Origin: Verrucomicrobiales bacterium
Lineage (GTDB): Bacteria; Verrucomicrobiota; Verrucomicrobiia; Verrucomicrobiales; SLCJ01
DNA length: 10,756 nucleotides
Assembly (NCBI GenBank): GCA_046075565.1
Contig: JBJTQJ010000076.1
Location: 1-10,756 of the forward strand
Reading direction: 5' to 3'
Shown here: one piece after another, positions 4,786 through 10,704 of the stretch
Numbering within the stretch: position 1 is the stretch's first letter
How the letters are laid out: every line of letters begins with the position of its first letter
The notes under the pieces: generated by a model
The model's database searches: none
Told to the model about the DNA's origin: nothing
What the model saw: the letters and a program-made list of their open reading frames with translations, nothing else
Program-made: the position numbers and the translations under genes

Positions 4786-4811
4786 GGCAAAAAGATGGTT
4801 GGCAAAAAGAT
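4786..4811 (+). repeat. GGCAAAAAGAT doublet (15-bp period), left arm of an inverted pair
   Basis: GGCAAAAAGAT at 4786-4796 and 4801-4811. The inverted counterpart is at 5783-5808. Confidence 0.85.
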
Positions 4812-4964: not shown

Positions 4965-5450
4965 TCATTCCGAGAGAATTTCCTTCACGAGTTCTAGAGT
5001 CATCGTGGGGGAGCCGAGCGGGGCGTCCAGCGCGATGGAATCGCTCTCGACAACATTACGGGCTTGCACCACCCGCTCGATGACATCGTTCAGGGTAACA
5101 AATTCTTCAGCATGGAATCCACTAGTTCCCGAATTCAACTCAAATTCCAGCCAGTCGGATAAGTTTTCCAATTCGGCATGAACGCCAAGACAACCATCGC
5201 GACTGGAAAGCTCTTCGCAAAGCCGATCCTGTGGCCGAAGTTTCCCCGGCTCTACCCCTAGATTGTGAGCAGCCGCAATCCAGACGGATTGCCACGCTTG
5301 CAAGGATACACTTGAGCCAGATTGCTCATGAAGAATGTCAAGACCGACCGACGGGCGGGACAAAAATCGCTCGGCCAAACTCTCTCCGAATAGCCTCTTC
5401 TTGAGGCCTTTCCAAATTGGGTTGCTATCAATTTTAGCTGGTCCGTGCAT
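4965..5450 (-). CDS. Hypothetical protein with acyl-carrier-protein-like fold pattern, about 161 aa
   Basis: ORF with ATG at 5450 (alternative TTG at 5459) and less GC-biased codon usage than its neighbours. 'AHNLGVEPGKLRPQDRLCEEL...LSDWLEFEL...AEEFVTLNDVIERV' follows the ACP helix pattern but has no DSL phosphopantetheine motif. Confidence 0.6.
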   Translation of the reverse strand: MHGPAKIDSNPIWKGLKKRLFGESLAERFLSRPSVGLDILHEQSGSSVSLQAWQSVWIAAAHNLGVEPGKLRPQDRLCEELSSRDGCLGVHAELENLSDWLEFELNSGTSGFHAEEFVTLNDVIERVVQARNVVESDSIALDAPLGSPTMTLELVKEILSE

Positions 5451-5568
5451 ATTCAGCAATTCCCGAATATGCCCGCTTTTTTAAAGAAAGACAGGGGCAT
5501 TGAGAATTCGTTCGCAAAAAAGTCCCTGGCGAGCGCCTCCGCCCAACACTGTCTGCTTTGCACCAATC

Positions 5569-5784
5569 TTAATGGATGAATGCCTGTTCCCAAGGCAAGA
5601 CCGGGACGGTCTTGCTACCACTCTGATAGATGCTACCAGGCCAAATCCCTTTGGGTTTCCGGGTTAATCGCAAGAGCGTCTCGCTCTCGCCCCCAAGGAA
5701 TGGGTCAGAGGCGCAGCAAAAGCAATCGCAAATTGCGCTATAGAAGCCAGTATTAATCTCGTCCACCCGAACCCTTTCTCCCAT
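5569..5784 (-). pseudogene. Possible 5'-truncated gene fragment (Cys-rich, 71 codons)
   Basis: Open frame '...FYSAICDCFCCASDPF...' on the same strand, upstream of the ACP-like ORF. Its only ATG overlaps the flanking repeat (5782-5784), so the start looks artefactual. Confidence 0.3.
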
Positions 5785-5808
5785 CTTTTTGCCCCACGTC
5801 TTTTTGCC
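5783..5808 (-). repeat. GGCAAAAAGA(C/T) doublet (15-bp period), right arm of the inverted pair
   Basis: Plus strand ATCTTTTTGCC (5783-5793) and GTCTTTTTGCC (5798-5808), with a degenerate third unit ATCTCTTGGCG at 5813. Bases 5798-5829 can also fold as an imperfect hairpin just after the VC0807-family gene stop. Confidence 0.85.
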
Positions 5809-5847
5809 AAAAATCTCTTGGCGAAAGACATGGTTGCCAGATATCCC

Positions 5848-6670: not shown

Positions 6671-6704
6671 AAGACTCAAGACGGCAAGACTCAAGACACA
6701 AGAC
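6671..6704 (+). repeat. Five-unit AAGAC short tandem array (7-8 bp period)
   Basis: AAGACTC AAGACGGC AAGACTC AAGACAC AAGAC, with units starting at 6671, 6678, 6686, 6693 and 6700. Confidence 0.85.
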
Positions 6705-6755
6705 CGGGAAGCACTCAATAGCGAAGCGATGAAGCGTATGGGCGGCCAAAGTGTC

Positions 6756-6803
6756 GGACTGCGCCGGCAGAGGGAGCCTTTGGCGACCAACGACGGCGCT
6801 TTC
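6756..6803 (+). repeat. REP-like palindrome (GGACT foot, GCGCCG...CGGCGC stem)
   Basis: GGACT GCGCCG (6761-6766) ... CGGCGC (6794-6799) TTTC. The foot-plus-stem layout resembles REP sequences. Only one copy is in the window. Confidence 0.4.
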
Positions 6804-6837
6804 GGGTCGTGGCGGTGCCGATGAATTCTCCAGCGGA

Positions 6838-6863
6838 GCCGAACTAGGGCTCGGCGTTCCCAG
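6838..6863 (-). repeat. REP-like palindrome (CTGGGAAC foot, GCCGAGC-CCTA-GTTCGGC hairpin)
   Basis: Minus strand CTGGGAAC GCCGAGC CCTA GTTCGGC, a 7-bp stem with one G-T pair, about 40 bp downstream of the DUF423 gene stop. There is no U-tract. Confidence 0.5.
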
Positions 6864-6902
6864 GGGGACCTGGCGACCACGGACTGAATAGACGCACCCC
6901 GG

Positions 6903-7292
6903 CTAATCTCCATCTCCCCTCCGTGCCGGAGATGGCATGAACGCCAGCGCGAGCCAGCCGGCGAGCAGGGCGGTGCCGCCGATGGGCGTGATGGCTCCGA
7001 GCCAGCGTTCGTTGGTCAGGGCCATGAGATAAAGTGTGCCGGAGAAGATCAGAATGCCAAAGAGAAACAAGACGATGGGGAGTCGGCGTGCCCCGAGGGC
7101 GAGGGCACCGAGGGCGGCGACGGTATGCGTGAGGTGGTACAGCGAAGCTTTTTGCCACCACTCGGCGTGGGTGGGATGGGCCGTGAAATAATCCTTCAAC
7201 CCGTGTGCTCCGAAGGCCCCGAGGGCGACACCGAGAAATCCCGAGAGGGCAATCAAACGCAACCAGAGCGGCGGCAATGCGGATTTTTCCAT
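6903..7292 (-). CDS. DUF423 (YgdD/TMEM256 family) small membrane protein, 129 aa
   Basis: Signature motifs 'GVALGAFGAHGL', 'YHL.H', 'GILIFSGTLY' and 'LGAITPIGG...LAGW'. Confidence 0.92.
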   Translation of the reverse strand: MEKSALPPLWLRLIALSGFLGVALGAFGAHGLKDYFTAHPTHAEWWQKASLYHLTHTVAALGALALGARRLPIVLFLFGILIFSGTLYLMALTNERWLGAITPIGGTALLAGWLALAFMPSPARRGDGD

Positions 7293-7322
7293 CGGCTAAA
7301 CTATCATTCTAAAGAGGAAAAT

Positions 7323-7468
7323 GGAACCACGAATGGACACGAAGGGGCACGAATTTTCAGAAGGTTATGACGAAAGACCTAATCACACTGCGGATGAGTG
7401 AAGCTGCTTCCATAAATCTCTGGTTTTCAATTTCTTATTCGTGTTTCTTAGCGTCCATTGGTGGTTTC
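7323..7468 (+). repeat. Fold-back element copy 1 (CACGAA-periodic inverted arms, central palindrome), MITE/REPIN-like
   Basis: Left arm GGAACCACGAATGGACACGAAGGGGCACGAATTT (7323-7356), centre GAAGCTGCTTC (7400-7410), right arm TTCGTGTTTCTTAGCGTCCATTGGTGGTTTC (7438-7468). It is homologous along its length to the reverse complement of 8552-8683. Confidence 0.85.
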
Positions 7469-7473
7469 TAGGA

Positions 7474-8505
7474 TCATTCGCGGGCGCGGATGGCCACGCG
7501 CAATTTCGCGGGCTGCGAACGTGGGTTGGCGCGGCGTTCCTCCGGTCCGGCGGTGATCACATCCTCATTTCCGTTCTCCCACTGGCCGAGGCGGCGTCCC
7601 TCGCGGAGCGCGAGTTTGACCCGCCGATCTTCCCCGGAATGAAATGTGAGGATCGCGACGCGTCCTCCGGGTTTGATCGCTTGCGGAAGGACGCGCAGGA
7701 ACGCATCAAGGGCTCCGAATTCGTCGTTAACGGCAATGCGGATGGCTTGGAAGACCCGCCGGATGCTTGACTCGATGGCCTCTTCGGATTGTCCGGGCAG
7801 AGCGGCGCGGATGGCACGGGCAAGAGCGAGGGTATCGGGAAAATCTTTTCCGGCGAGCCGTATGGCGAGTTCGCCAGCATGGGATTCGTCGGAATTTTCA
7901 CGCAGCACAGTGGTGAGGGTTTCCGCCTTGGCGCGGGACAGCCACTCGCGGGCGGAGAGTCCGCGTTCGGGGTTCATGCGCATGTCGAGCGGACCAGCGG
8001 CCTTGAAGGTAAACCCGCGGCCAGGATCATCGATTTGCATGGAGGAACATCCAAGATCGGCGAGCAGGAAATCGAATGGACCGGTCTCGGCCAGAACCTT
8101 GGACAGGCCCGCGAAATTCGAGCGAATGGCGCGGAAGGCCGGTTCCTCGTAACCGAGGGAACGAAGTCGTTCGACCGTGCGCGGCAACTGCACGGGATCG
8201 ACATCGAGTCCGATCAGCCTGCCCCCGGGTGCAAGGCGGGCGAGCAGGTTTTCCGCATGGCCGCCGTAGCCGAGGGTGGCATCAAGGCCGGCCTGGCCGG
8301 GTGCCGGTTGGAGGAAAGCGAGAATTTCCCCGACCATGATTGGCACGTGCATGCCGGCGGGGGTTTTACCGGAGGCAAAAACCTTCGCGACCGTGGCAGG
8401 GTCTCGGGCCGGATCGAGTTCCTTGTATTTTTCCCCGAATCGACGCGGGTGGGTTCCCCGGTAACGAAGGCGGCGGCGGTGGGGAGATGGTTCAGGGGCG
8501 TCCAT
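7474..8505 (-). CDS. rsmH: 16S rRNA (cytosine(1402)-N4)-methyltransferase RsmH/MraW family, variant with N-terminal extension, 343 aa
   Basis: Motifs HVPIM, DATLGYGGHA, LIGLDVD, LADLGCSSMQIDDPGRGFTF, PLDMRM, FQAIRIAVNDE, TFHSGEDRRVK and NPRSQPAKLR. The start is set at ATG 8505 (MDAPEP) because the longer upstream frame runs into the repeat element. Confidence 0.92.
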   Translation of the reverse strand: MDAPEPSPHRRRLRYRGTHPRRFGEKYKELDPARDPATVAKVFASGKTPAGMHVPIMVGEILAFLQPAPGQAGLDATLGYGGHAENLLARLAPGGRLIGLDVDPVQLPRTVERLRSLGYEEPAFRAIRSNFAGLSKVLAETGPFDFLLADLGCSSMQIDDPGRGFTFKAAGPLDMRMNPERGLSAREWLSRAKAETLTTVLRENSDESHAGELAIRLAGKDFPDTLALARAIRAALPGQSEEAIESSIRRVFQAIRIAVNDEFGALDAFLRVLPQAIKPGGRVAILTFHSGEDRRVKLALREGRRLGQWENGNEDVITAGPEERRANPRSQPAKLRVAIRARE

Positions 8506-8551
8506 GGGAAGCGAAACAGAGAAACCACGATGGCGAAGCCAGGGCCTCATC

Positions 8552-8683
8552 ATAGACACTAAGAAACACGAAAAATTGAAAAGCAAAGAATTGCGGGAAG
8601 CGCTTCACTGGGACGCAGGATACTGCAGCCATGATTCATAAACATTTTGAAATTCGTGCCCATTCGTGTCCCTTCGTGGTTCC
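8552..8683 (-). repeat. Fold-back element copy 2, inverted relative to copy 1
   Basis: The reverse complement of 8650-8683 matches 7323-7356 at 32/34. The reverse complement of 8552-8572 matches 7438-7458 at 19/21. The central palindrome GAAGCGCTTC is at 8597-8606. Confidence 0.85.
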
Positions 8684-8751
8684 GTTTTTCTTTCAAGGGT
8701 TCAAGTTTGTTTTTCATGGCGCGGGCGGGAATTGCCAGCATCATTAGCCCC

Positions 8752-9093
8752 GTGCCCCCCGCCCTGCAAACCATTCTCCTCCTTGTTGGCAGCAACATCT
8801 TCATGACCTTCGCCTGGTATGGCCACCTGCGCGCCCATACGGACAAGCCACTGTGGATTGTCATTCTGCTGAGCTGGGGGGTCGCGTTTTTCGAATACTG
8901 CCTCATGGTGCCGGCCAACCGCATCGGCCACATGTCAATGAATGTGGCGCAGCTCAAGATCCTGCAGGAGGTCATCACCCTCGGGGTCTTCATTCCCTTC
9001 GCCATGCTTTACCTTAAGGAGCCCTTCCGGCTGAACTTCGTCTGGGCCGGGCTCTGTATGGTGGCGGCGGTGTGGTTCATGTTCCGGAAATGA
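8752..9093 (+). CDS. Small DMT-family membrane protein (DUF486/DMT_6 type), about 113 aa
   Basis: Signature motifs 'LL..SN.FMTFAWYGHL', 'SWG.AFFEYCL.VPANRIG' and 'QLKILQEVITL.VF.PF'. GTG at 8752 gives a family-typical length. ATG at 8716 is the alternative start. Confidence 0.88.
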   Translation: MPPALQTILLLVGSNIFMTFAWYGHLRAHTDKPLWIVILLSWGVAFFEYCLMVPANRIGHMSMNVAQLKILQEVITLGVFIPFAMLYLKEPFRLNFVWAGLCMVAAVWFMFRK

Positions 9094-9165
9094 GGGGAAA
9101 ATAGGAAATTCGCGCTCCGGGAGCTAAAATTGTTCGATTTTGATCTTCAGTCCACGAAAGAACGC

Positions 9166-9195
9166 TTGACCCTCGGTCGTCTCCGACTGCATTAT
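9166..9195 (+). promoter_or_regulatory. Possible sigma70 promoter of the MFS gene
   Basis: TTGACC (9166-9171), an 18-bp spacer, then CATTAT (9190-9195), about 40 bp before the ATG at 9235. Confidence 0.35.
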
Positions 9196-9234
9196 CTGCA
9201 GGCATTCTCAGTTCACGAAAACATTCCGACACTC

Positions 9235-10704
9235 ATGACCCAGTCAATACCCTCAGCTGATGGATGGTGGGGCCGCTTGCAGCCCTACCAGAAGCTTGTT
9301 TTTGTCGTGGCCACGCTCGCATGGCTCTTCGACTGTTTGGACCAACAGCTTTTCAATCTGGCGCGGAACCCTGCCATGGCCGCGCTGCTGGCTCCCGGCC
9401 AGGACACCAAGTTTTACGGTGGCATTGCCACGGCCATTTTCGTTCTTGGATGGGCGACCGGTGGCATGATTTTCGGCTCGCTGGGCGATCGCTACGGCCG
9501 GGCCAAAATGCTTGCGGTCACCGTGCTGCTCTACTCGCTGGCCACCGGACTTTCCGCCTTGGCCGGATTCCCCAACCTGCCCACCATCTCCGGCGCGCTG
9601 ACGCTGAACAAGATTCCGGGGCTGCAGGATCTCTCCACCCACTATCTCGACTTCACGATTTTCCGTTTTATTACCGGCCTGGGCGTTGGCGGGGTCTTTG
9701 GATTGGCCGTGGCGCTCGTCGCCGATACGGTGCCGAATGAAGTCCGGCCTCGCGCGCTCGGCGTGCTCCAATCGTTCTCGGCGGTTGGTAACGTGGCGGC
9801 GGGACTCATTGGTATCACCATCGCCCTGACCGCCTTGGGCAAATCGCCGAACTACTGGATGTGGTTGTTTTTCATTGGCGCGCTCCCGGCATTCCTGGTT
9901 GCCACCATCCAGATGAAAATGAAGGAACCCCAGGCATGGATCGAGGCACGTGATAGGGCAGCCGCGCAGGGCAAAAAGGCAGGTTCCTACAAGGATCTCT
10001 TTTCCCATCCGGTGTGGAAACGGCACGCCCTGCTGGGCATGGTCCTTTCCTGCGCGGGGGTCATCGGTCTCTGGGGTATCGGCGTTTTCTCCACCGACCT
10101 CGTGGGCGACATCGTGGGTCAGAGTCTGACGGAAGCCGGCAAAGCCAAGGAGGAAGTGCTCAAGGGCAGACAGCTTTGGGGCTCGCTCAACCTCCTCTTC
10201 TTTAACATCGGGGCCTTTGTCGGCATGCTCGCCTTCACCCGCGTCACCGAAGTGGTGGGTCGGAAAAAAGCCTTCACTTTCTTCTTCATTGGGGCATTCG
10301 TGGTGACGATCGGTGTCTTCCAGATGATGGGCAAGGTCAGTGGTCGCTGGGACATCCTGTGGATGGCTCCTCTCATGGGCTTTTTCCACCTGTCGGTGTT
10401 CGCAGGGTTCTCCATCTATTTGCCCGAACTTTTCCCGACCCGCCTGCGCGCCACCGGTGTTTCGTTCTGCTACAACGTGGGCCGGTATCTGGCCGCGACA
10501 GGCCCGCTCACGCTGGCTCTGCTGGCCAAAAAGATGGCGGATAAGGCTGCCATCGAAGCCAAGGCCATCGGAGCAAGCGAGGCCATTGCCAAAATCGACG
10601 CCTTCCGCGACGCCGCCTCCCTGATGTGCGGCATCTTCCTGCTCGGCCTTGTCGTCCTCCCCTTCCTGCCGGAGACCAAGGGCAAACCGATGCCCGAGGA
10701 TTAA
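9235..10704 (+). CDS. Major facilitator superfamily transporter, 489 aa
   Basis: About 12 TM segments. Motif A 'GSLGDRYGRAK', 'FRFITGLGVGG', second-half 'EVVGRKK', 'LPELFPTRLRATG' and C-terminal 'LPETKG' are present. The acidic TM1 (FDCLDQ) suggests an H+-coupled organic anion or sugar-acid symporter. The substrate is unknown. Confidence 0.92.
   Translation: MTQSIPSADGWWGRLQPYQKLVFVVATLAWLFDCLDQQLFNLARNPAMAALLAPGQDTKFYGGIATAIFVLGWATGGMIFGSLGDRYGRAKMLAVTVLLYSLATGLSALAGFPNLPTISGALTLNKIPGLQDLSTHYLDFTIFRFITGLGVGGVFGLAVALVADTVPNEVRPRALGVLQSFSAVGNVAAGLIGITIALTALGKSPNYWMWLFFIGALPAFLVATIQMKMKEPQAWIEARDRAAAQGKKAGSYKDLFSHPVWKRHALLGMVLSCAGVIGLWGIGVFSTDLVGDIVGQSLTEAGKAKEEVLKGRQLWGSLNLLFFNIGAFVGMLAFTRVTEVVGRKKAFTFFFIGAFVVTIGVFQMMGKVSGRWDILWMAPLMGFFHLSVFAGFSIYLPELFPTRLRATGVSFCYNVGRYLAATGPLTLALLAKKMADKAAIEAKAIGASEAIAKIDAFRDAASLMCGIFLLGLVVLPFLPETKGKPMPED

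Follow-up and report, generated by a model that had tools for sequence, protein, structure and literature searches.

The stretch of DNA analysed here, called the window throughout, is a complete contig of 10,756 nt (C76) from a Verrucomicrobiales draft genome designated G000 (3.9 Mb, 129 contigs, 59.6% G+C), and the sequencing runs that hold it are labelled as freshwater metagenome. Two related, gene-less repeats lie in it in inverted orientation, referred to as copy 1 and copy 2, with a paralog of rsmH as the sole gene between them (Table 1). This gene is regarded as a paralog because the canonical rsmH is found elsewhere in the genome, on contig C99. A DUF423 gene lies downstream of it beyond copy 1, and a DMT_6 (DUF486) gene diverges from it beyond copy 2. 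A first-pass annotation, made from the letters of the window, had described the repeats as homologous fold-back elements of a non-autonomous family resembling miniature inverted-repeat transposable elements (MITEs) or REPINs, the hairpins formed by paired repetitive extragenic palindromic (REP) sequences, and had proposed that the pair could form a composite cassette or an invertible segment. Its remark that exactly one gene is enclosed agrees with the gene limits in Table 1.

Table 1. Positions of the two repeat copies, their parts and the adjoining genes within the window.
Feature	Position	Strand	Basis and remarks
Copy 1, 164-nt gene-less MITE-like element	7309..7472	+	nhmmer 165.3 bits; 42.7% G+C
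Copy 1, left target duplication ATCAT	7304..7308	.	sequence; same offset as the perfect duplications of 7 other copies
Copy 1, right target duplication ATCAT	7473..7477	.	holds the rsmH stop (TGA, minus strand, 7474-7476)
Copy 1, left arm	7325..7355	+	CACGAA at 7328-7333, 7338-7343, 7348-7353
Copy 1, right arm	7436..7466	+	TTCGTG at 7438; degenerate TTAGCG at 7448, TTGGTG at 7458
Copy 2, 182-nt element of the same family	8517..8698	-	nhmmer 116.6 bits; ends from family offsets
Copy 2, left arm	8651..8682	-	TTCGTG (plus strand) at 8653-8658, 8663-8668, 8673-8678
Copy 2, right arm	8523..8575	-	interrupted by hairpin module
Hairpin module, 21 nt	8531..8551	.	4-bp stem, GAA loop, GGGCCTCATC tail; inserted after CACGA of the first unit
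rsmH paralog (Methyltransf_5)	7474..8505	-	PF01795, 6.5e-65; ATG at 8505; 63.8% G+C
DUF423 gene	6903..7292	-	Pfam; downstream of the rsmH paralog
DMT_6 (DUF486) gene	8716..9093	+	Pfam; divergent from rsmH; ATG at 8716
MFS transporter gene	9130..10704	+	Pfam

The homology of the two copies is real and, in a family of 51 loci, far beyond chance. A repeat search yields three pairs of inverted repeats, at 7298-7370/8636-8708 (73 nt, 77%), 7388-7433/8573-8618 (46 nt, 72%) and 7435-7458/8552-8575 (24 nt, 88%), and a blastn alignment of copy 1 with reverse-complemented copy 2 spans 145 nt at 73.8% identity. Altogether 126 of 156 aligned positions are identical (~81%), the longest near-perfect stretch common to both measures 17 nt, and the copies belong to different sub-types. 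The 32/34 match of the outer arms given by the first-pass annotation was confirmed by eye, and its CACGAA/TTCGTG units recur every 10 nt as it had stated; the boundaries that it drew had to be moved outwards. The ends of copy 1 are fixed by a copy on contig C118 (158 of 164 positions identical, flanks unrelated) together with 21 other copies. Copy 2 had formerly been ended at 8552 because its inner arm holds the 21-nt insert, and its true distance from the rsmH start codon is 11 nt rather than about 45 bp. A further 17 nt separate its other end from the DMT_6 start codon, and of the 210 nt between the two divergent start codons only ~28 nt are left outside copy 2.

Copy 1 is flanked on both sides by the pentamer ATCAT, so the absence of a target-site duplication noted in the first pass now applies to copy 2 alone, at which none is recognisable (2/5 matching). 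When copy 1 is excised on paper together with one ATCAT, the rsmH TGA is followed after 11 nt by the DUF423 ATG, and the junction reconstructed in this way is an ordinary operon junction. RNA folding gave a minimum free energy of -42.6 kcal/mol (z = -2.27), the corresponding z for DNA being -1.31, both modest. A scan of the elements found no promoter-like sites, an Rfam scan of them returned no match at E up to 1, and a terminator scan gave two terminator-like sites, both inside the rsmH coding sequence and no more numerous than in shuffled sequences.

The two copies are members of a large dispersed family. A profile built from 22 copies produced 86 nhmmer matches in the genome, which merge into 51 loci, 25 of them scoring at least 95 bits. 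The copies measure ~165 nt and hold no long open reading frame (ORF), and in 23 of them arms of ~30-45 nt reach the very ends (CCTWGAAA...). These 23 full copies were anchored on their outermost units, with allowed offsets of 4 on the left and 3 on the right, and 8 of the 23 proved to have a perfect 5-bp flanking direct repeat, 5 of the 8 at one and the same offset pair. Pairing the left flank of each copy with the right flank of another gave a control rate of 3.0% (binomial P = 2e-7), and the duplicated pentamers consist of A or T at 35 of 40 bases in this 59.6% G+C genome. By crude ORF calls, the stop-codon-side flank lies within 30 nt of a stop codon or overlaps an ORF in 19 of 25 full copies. 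Its 51 dispersed loci, its inverted arms, the 5-bp duplication and the lack of a long ORF mark the family as non-autonomous and MITE-like, and it combines the traits by which MITEs are recognised: a non-coding length below ~300-500 bp, terminal inverted repeats, a target duplication of fixed length and many dispersed copies. Copies that are 96% identical occupy different sites, recording recent copying. Two further copies, at C36:3108-3278 and C19:24989-25180, have flanks in common on both sides and hence lie within a larger duplicated unit.

Within the arms, the CACGAA units are kept equally in the left and right arms across the 23 copies, and at non-unit positions the two arms are consistently distinct. 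The second spacer is complementary in 9-35% of the 23 copies, a range that becomes 4-35% when positions just inside the arms are included. Conservation in the alignment thus seems to follow the repeated word and its 10-nt phase and not the hairpin. Since the second spacer is rarely complementary and the units are kept, the arms fit protein-binding sites better than a selected hairpin, in line with what the first-pass annotation had supposed, and their phasing suggests that protein touches one face of the DNA at several points.

The module that interrupts the right arm of copy 2 is an observation in its own right. Its parts are, in order, a T, a stem of 3-5 bp, a loop of GAA or GCA, the complementary half of the stem and GGGCCTYATC. 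It measures 21-23 nt and sits within arm units directly after CACGA or CACGGA; some copies have it in the left arm and others in the right, and one arm on C22 has it twice. A regular-expression search found 12 instances in the genome with complementary 4-nt stem halves, and four different base-paired stem sequences (3-4 bp) were distinguished by eye; besides C22, the module occurs on C13, C19, C90, C119, C3, C77, C81 and C82 of G000. It looks like either a tiny insertion of its own or the mark of the position at which a unit is cut.

With good confidence, copies 1 and 2 were inserted separately, each being a small, non-autonomous mobile element of MITE type. Because copy 1 has its own target duplication, the rsmH-DUF423 junction must be older than copy 1. 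A chance model in which 47 of 3227 crude gene gaps are occupied predicts 0.65 doubly flanked genes, with P(>=1) = 0.48, and one was observed; since random placement predicts this much, the presence of one gene with a copy on each side can be put down to coincidence. Two points weigh against this assessment: 15 of the 23 anchored copies, copy 2 included, are without a perfect duplication, and the chance estimate relies on crude gene calls, taken as the longest ORFs that do not overlap.

The distribution of the rsmH paralog bears on the same question. Its orthologs occur in 15 of 40 relatives in the order at 54-62% identity, and in none of the three genomes of the same family. No conserved neighbour emerged from 95 loci (15 in relatives and 80 in metagenomes); DUF423 or DMT_6 stands beside none of the 15 or the 80, and the 80 metagenome loci, at 62% identity or less, have no common neighbour and no match to the repeat family. 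DMT_6 itself is present in 24 of the 40 relatives, with one further weak MFS match, and adjoins DUF423 or the rsmH paralog in none of the 24. The relatives available for this synteny comparison are too distant for it to count for or against an insertion of the block. The paralog also carries ~50 residues N-terminal to its Methyltransf_5 domain.

The patchy occurrence of the paralog and its unconserved surroundings would agree with the block from copy 1 through rsmH to copy 2 being a composite cassette that moved, or can move, as a unit by its two outer arms. The cassette reading also draws on the bracketing of exactly one gene by full inverted copies, on a locus in another genome (G040, described below) where the same arms hold a non-nuclease ORF, which speaks against simple insertions insofar as arms can evidently bracket cargo, and on a second arm family that brackets another ORF in this very window. 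It is nevertheless very unlikely. Copy 1 has a target duplication at its own ends, leaving the rsmH-DUF423 junction older than copy 1; the outer flanks of the block do not match (ATCATT on the left, GTTCAA on the right); the two copies are of different sub-types and only ~81% identical, whereas copy 1 has its 96% twin on C118; 0.65 such genes are expected by chance; and the genome contains the block only once. The family has also turned out to be a high-copy dispersed repeat of 51 loci, which the first-pass annotation itself had named, along with conserved gene order in relatives without the element, as what would speak for two independent insertions.

Public data for the locus amount to contigs of four runs from one freshwater metagenome study, no RNA run being listed for the stretch. 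Assembly stops at the elements in these contigs; where the organism has coverage, copy 1 and copy 2 are both there, and none of the contigs shows a site empty of either. A joint from 7353 to 8653 forms an arm-to-arm palindrome with 29 nt on each side and exceeds its flanks in depth in three runs, and it must therefore come from other copies or organisms; another, from 6672 to 8652, links opposite strands with 31 nt on each side and is not assignable to the locus. No inversion or excision joint assignable to the locus, and no opposite-strand joint linking the two copies, appeared in the contigs of the four runs, a weak negative. The idea that rsmH is an invertible, phase-variable segment, which the inverted repeats ~1 kb apart might invite, is scarcely credible in view of this weak, contig-based negative, of a Pfam scan of the 12 window ORFs that found no recombinase family, of a longest near-perfect common stretch of only 17 nt, and of the fact that the gene would keep its own flanks on inversion with no regulatory gain apparent.

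The same Pfam scan found no transposase family either, as the first-pass annotation had remarked, and attention turns to the longer version of the element that it had advised looking for. Such a version exists in the same genome. At C124:69173-69613 the same arms surround one 134-codon ORF that matches PF13366 (PDDEXK_3) at 111.8 bits and TIGR04256 (GxxExxY) at 119.9 bits, and what lies between the arms is thus a GxxExxY nuclease gene, not a known transposase. The arrangement of the same arms around a PF13366 gene recurs in four genomes, namely G000 (C124), G034 (C95) and two metagenome-assembled genomes (MAGs) of other lineages, L237 and L292. In the latter two, found through an exact 20-nt arm core, the gene lies inside arm pairs ~400 nt apart. 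A physical link between CACGAA arms and the nuclease gene is therefore observed. Among the other PF13366 genes of G000, those on C82 and at C124:34850 have the variant units CACGGAT and CACAGAT on both flanks, that on C77 has TTCGTG-type units upstream only, and that on C68 has a separate hairpin element ~600 nt upstream.

This association extends well beyond one genome. PF13366 genes are present in 31 of 41 genomes of the order, and in these 31 genomes the inverted flanks of 51 of the 88 PF13366 loci outscore the best of 42 control-gene loci (18 of 27 in an earlier subset). Protein identity is correlated with arm similarity (Spearman 0.22), a value that none of 2000 permutations reached. The CACGAA-arm elements, with three units 10 nt apart in each arm, share the build of the GxxExxY-associated elements in general, whose inverted arms consist of two to four short units with a period of 8-10 nt.

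The gene-less copies retain traces of the gene as well. In copy 1 an ATG at 7321 opens a 26-codon ORF remnant, the sole ORF of the element, reading MEPRMDTKGHEF; the left arm of copy 2 holds the remnant TEPRRDTNGHEF, its ATG lost. Both are in the frame of the nuclease N-termini, and in copy 1 the residues also match. Between natural copies and gene-carrying elements, similarity extends 10-20 nt beyond the units on both sides, taking in the last codon and the stop of the G034 nuclease gene. The gene-less copies look like internal-deletion derivatives of gene-carrying elements of ~440 nt, the aligned stretches being short.

The encoded protein keeps, in alignment, the acidic and lysine residues of the PD-(D/E)XK site, and its fold is predicted with confidence (predicted local distance difference test, pLDDT, 92.9). 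A fold search placed lambda exonuclease, Cas4 and Hjc-type resolvases nearest among solved structures, at template modelling (TM) scores of ~0.5 that reflect a generic PD-(D/E)XK fold, and a sequence search of the PDB with the nuclease returned nothing at E up to 1. The GxxExxY family (PF13366) is listed as being of unknown function in a review (PMC3424549).

Elements with the same arms are distributed unevenly among the genomes of the order. The arm pattern was matched in 11 of 41, with 45, 35, 27 and 22 matches in four genomes and 1-3 in seven, and a reversed-pattern control gave 0 matches. G034, which belongs to another family of the order, holds 35 arm matches, and its three congeners hold 0. 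Of six G034 sites searched in these congeners, three were matched by both of their flanks in one congener or more, and two of the three were aligned. The third, L358, found both flanks in G018; L357 found only one flank, and nothing usable was recovered for L355 and L356. At both aligned sites the adjoining genes stand 7-24 nt apart in G018 and/or G022, whereas in G034 the element separates them by ~290 nt, the nucleotide flanks being too diverged for a duplication to be read. Same-arm elements are thus present and absent at the same gene junctions in a related genus. One of these junctions (L354/L360-L362) is empty in G018, where stop and start are separated by 7 nt, carries a CACGAAT-arm element in G034, and holds hairpins of CAGGAT units along with other repeats in G014 and G022; different arm families seem to have settled at this junction repeatedly.

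Beyond the order, at least 128 stretches of a species-level genome collection contain the exact 20-nt arm core, where chance would give ~1 (596 Gb, two strands, 4^20). Its range covers Verrucomicrobiota, Planctomycetota, Kiritimatiellota, Lentisphaerota, Acidobacteriota, Armatimonadota, Hydrogenedentota, Proteobacteria and others. Of 80 core loci examined, 38 have an inverted arm pair 47-234 nt apart and 2 have the nuclease gene, those of L237 and L292 being the sole PF13366 matches when the loci were scanned for this family with 650-nt flanks. Other arrangements were met along the way. Four to eight direct tandem copies of the core, 35-175 nt apart, stand at L235, L263, L271 and L275, in MAGs labelled Nitrosomonas, Planctomyces and uncultured bacterium, and at L222 (G008:C11:431700-432450) one element lies within another, the inner with CACAGAT arms and the outer with CACGAAT arms. 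At L221 (G040:C107:27600-28750), CACGAAT-type arms ~510 nt apart enclose an opposite-strand ORF that is not PF13366, which indicates that arms of this type can carry other cargo.

Taken together, these observations raise the question of which enzyme moves the family. It is a serious possibility, only a little short of an even chance, that the nuclease, or a multimer of it, recognises the phased units as its binding sites and would cut both donor and target. On a slightly less secure footing, the nuclease may tentatively be proposed as the mobilising enzyme of a ~440-nt one-gene transposable element, a proposal that would bring together the recognised arms, the 5-bp duplication, the gene-less miniatures and the spread across phyla. 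Several considerations tell against it. The permutation tests are inflated by related sequences, and the correlation between protein and arms could be mere co-inheritance of linked DNA, so that what it demonstrates is co-inheritance and not binding. G008 has 27 arm matches, but its single PF13366 gene has CACAGAT and not CACGAAT arms. To our knowledge, no strand-transfer chemistry is known for a 130-aa PD-(D/E)XK nuclease, and duplications of 5 bp usually point to DDE transposases. Finally, 8 of 11 transposase matches, from four Pfam families, were examined, and an unrecognised transposase acting in trans may remain.

The last point leads to the alternative that a conventional transposase, for example of the DDE type, either unfound or lost, mobilises the family in trans, with the GxxExxY gene as a frequent passenger. 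Several points favour it: an AT-rich 5-bp duplication is typical of DDE transposition, the arms in G040:C107 hold a different ORF, G008 is rich in arms without a PF13366 gene that has matching ones, and the structural neighbours of the nuclease (lambda exonuclease, Cas4 and Hjc, TM ~0.5) are hydrolytic enzymes. It must be set against this that none of the 8 examined transposase matches of G000 (PF01609, PF00665, PF01797, PF13701) has the family arms, that the 80 core loci yielded two PF13366 genes within arms (a test limited to the PF13366 scan and the 650-nt flank), and that arms and nuclease genes diverge together across 51 elements. On balance, a mover of this kind is possible but somewhat doubtful. 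An IS1380-type parent was considered and rejected, the sole PF13701 gene, on C44, being without such ends.

A far weaker candidate is the REP-associated tyrosine transposase (RAYT), a Y1 HUH enzyme, which would have moved the family as single-stranded hairpins in the manner of REP sequences and REPINs. The fold-back form, with the folding energy and z score given above, and the three full-profile PF01797 matches in the genome, one of them with an internal TAG stop, are compatible with such an origin. REPINs are not known to have target duplications, which are present here. In addition, outside the units the left arm is consistently distinct from the right, two PF01797 genes that were examined lack the family arms, and the gene that does stand between the arms belongs to PF13366. 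The arms contain neither of the tags, GTAG and CGTC, described in PMC3733652. A REPIN-like origin is thus highly improbable.

Set beside known systems, the elements combine familiar traits in an unfamiliar way. Bacterial MITEs are exemplified by Correia/NEMIS of Neisseria, RUP, ERIC and Nezha (PMC3733652). The present family resembles them in being small and non-coding, with terminal inverted repeats, a short target duplication and tens of intergenic copies, and in its insertion at gene boundaries, where copies would be transcribed together with their neighbours. It departs from them in that, among the 8 transposase matches examined, none has these arms, the one cognate gene found encoding a 130-aa PD-(D/E)XK nuclease instead, and in that the arms are made of three phased 10-nt units and not of one continuous inverted repeat. 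With REP/REPIN sequences and their RAYT genes it shares one small gene between inverted repeats that are far commoner without the gene, and a patchy occurrence across genomes; it differs in the enzyme fold, PD-(D/E)XK in place of HUH Y1, in the 5-bp duplication, and in arms that are phased direct units with left and right distinguishable, in contrast to a single tagged palindrome.

The ends of larger transposons offer another parallel. Tn7 (with its TnsB sites), Mu and IS21 have several phased transposase sites per end, and Tn7, which makes 5-bp duplications, employs the PD-(D/E)XK nuclease TnsA, a precedent for the use of such a nuclease in transposition. The present elements likewise have several binding-site-like repeats per end and a 5-bp duplication; those transposons, unlike them, are kilobases long and need a DDE strand-transfer protein, none of which is found in or beside the element. 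As in composite transposons and invertons, inverted copies stand on both sides of a gene. In contrast to composite transposons, the duplication flanks copy 1 alone, the copies are ~81% identical and encode nothing, and no second location was seen; in contrast to invertons, the window scan showed no recombinase and the contigs no second orientation. A published description of repeats around GxxExxY, PDDEXK_3, PF13366 or TIGR04256 genes was not found in the full-text literature, a search that does not reach subscription journals, and literature on MITEs in Verrucomicrobia and on REPIN/RAYT systems with nucleases offered nothing closer.

A history consistent with these data can be outlined. Elements of ~440 nt with one gene, encoding the 130-aa GxxExxY nuclease, would have given rise by internal deletion to gene-less copies whose left arm retains the start codon and the first ten codons of the nuclease gene. 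The resulting element of ~165 nt, with three CACGAA(T) units per inverted arm spaced one helical turn apart, would duplicate 5 bp of AT-rich target on insertion. In this lineage it would have spread to ~50 loci, for the most part in narrow intergenic gaps and often beside stop codons. Copy 2 would be an older copy of a different sub-type, placed in a gap of ~30 nt between the divergent rsmH and DMT_6 starts, and copy 1 would have inserted at the stop codon of the paralog, in what had been an 11-nt junction with DUF423. A long hairpin, presumably transcribed, would now stand between rsmH and DUF423 and may influence the expression of both.

The window also holds a second, unrelated family of phased arms. 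At 4786-4811 and 5784-5809, GGCAAAAAGA units with a period of ~15 nt stand in inverted orientation and bracket a segment of ~1 kb with a 164-aa ORF (4965-5459, minus strand) that has no Pfam match. In the genome, 9 sites contain at least two such units within 40 nt, ~7 of them being clear two-unit arms, and the family includes a short hairpin at C82:86969-87058.

For the locus itself the outcome is deflating, in that rsmH most probably lies in neither a cassette nor a switch and simply has a mobile repeat on each side. Copy 2 nonetheless occupies almost the whole divergent promoter region, and elements of this kind fill gene junctions, break short-read assemblies and may alter operon expression. 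If the nuclease is not the mobiliser, an unseen transposase of very wide reach remains to be found. If the nuclease does drive mobility, the elements would represent a new and very small kind of transposon, with a transposition chemistry unlike that of the known DDE, HUH, serine or tyrosine enzymes, and a large family of unknown function would acquire a role.

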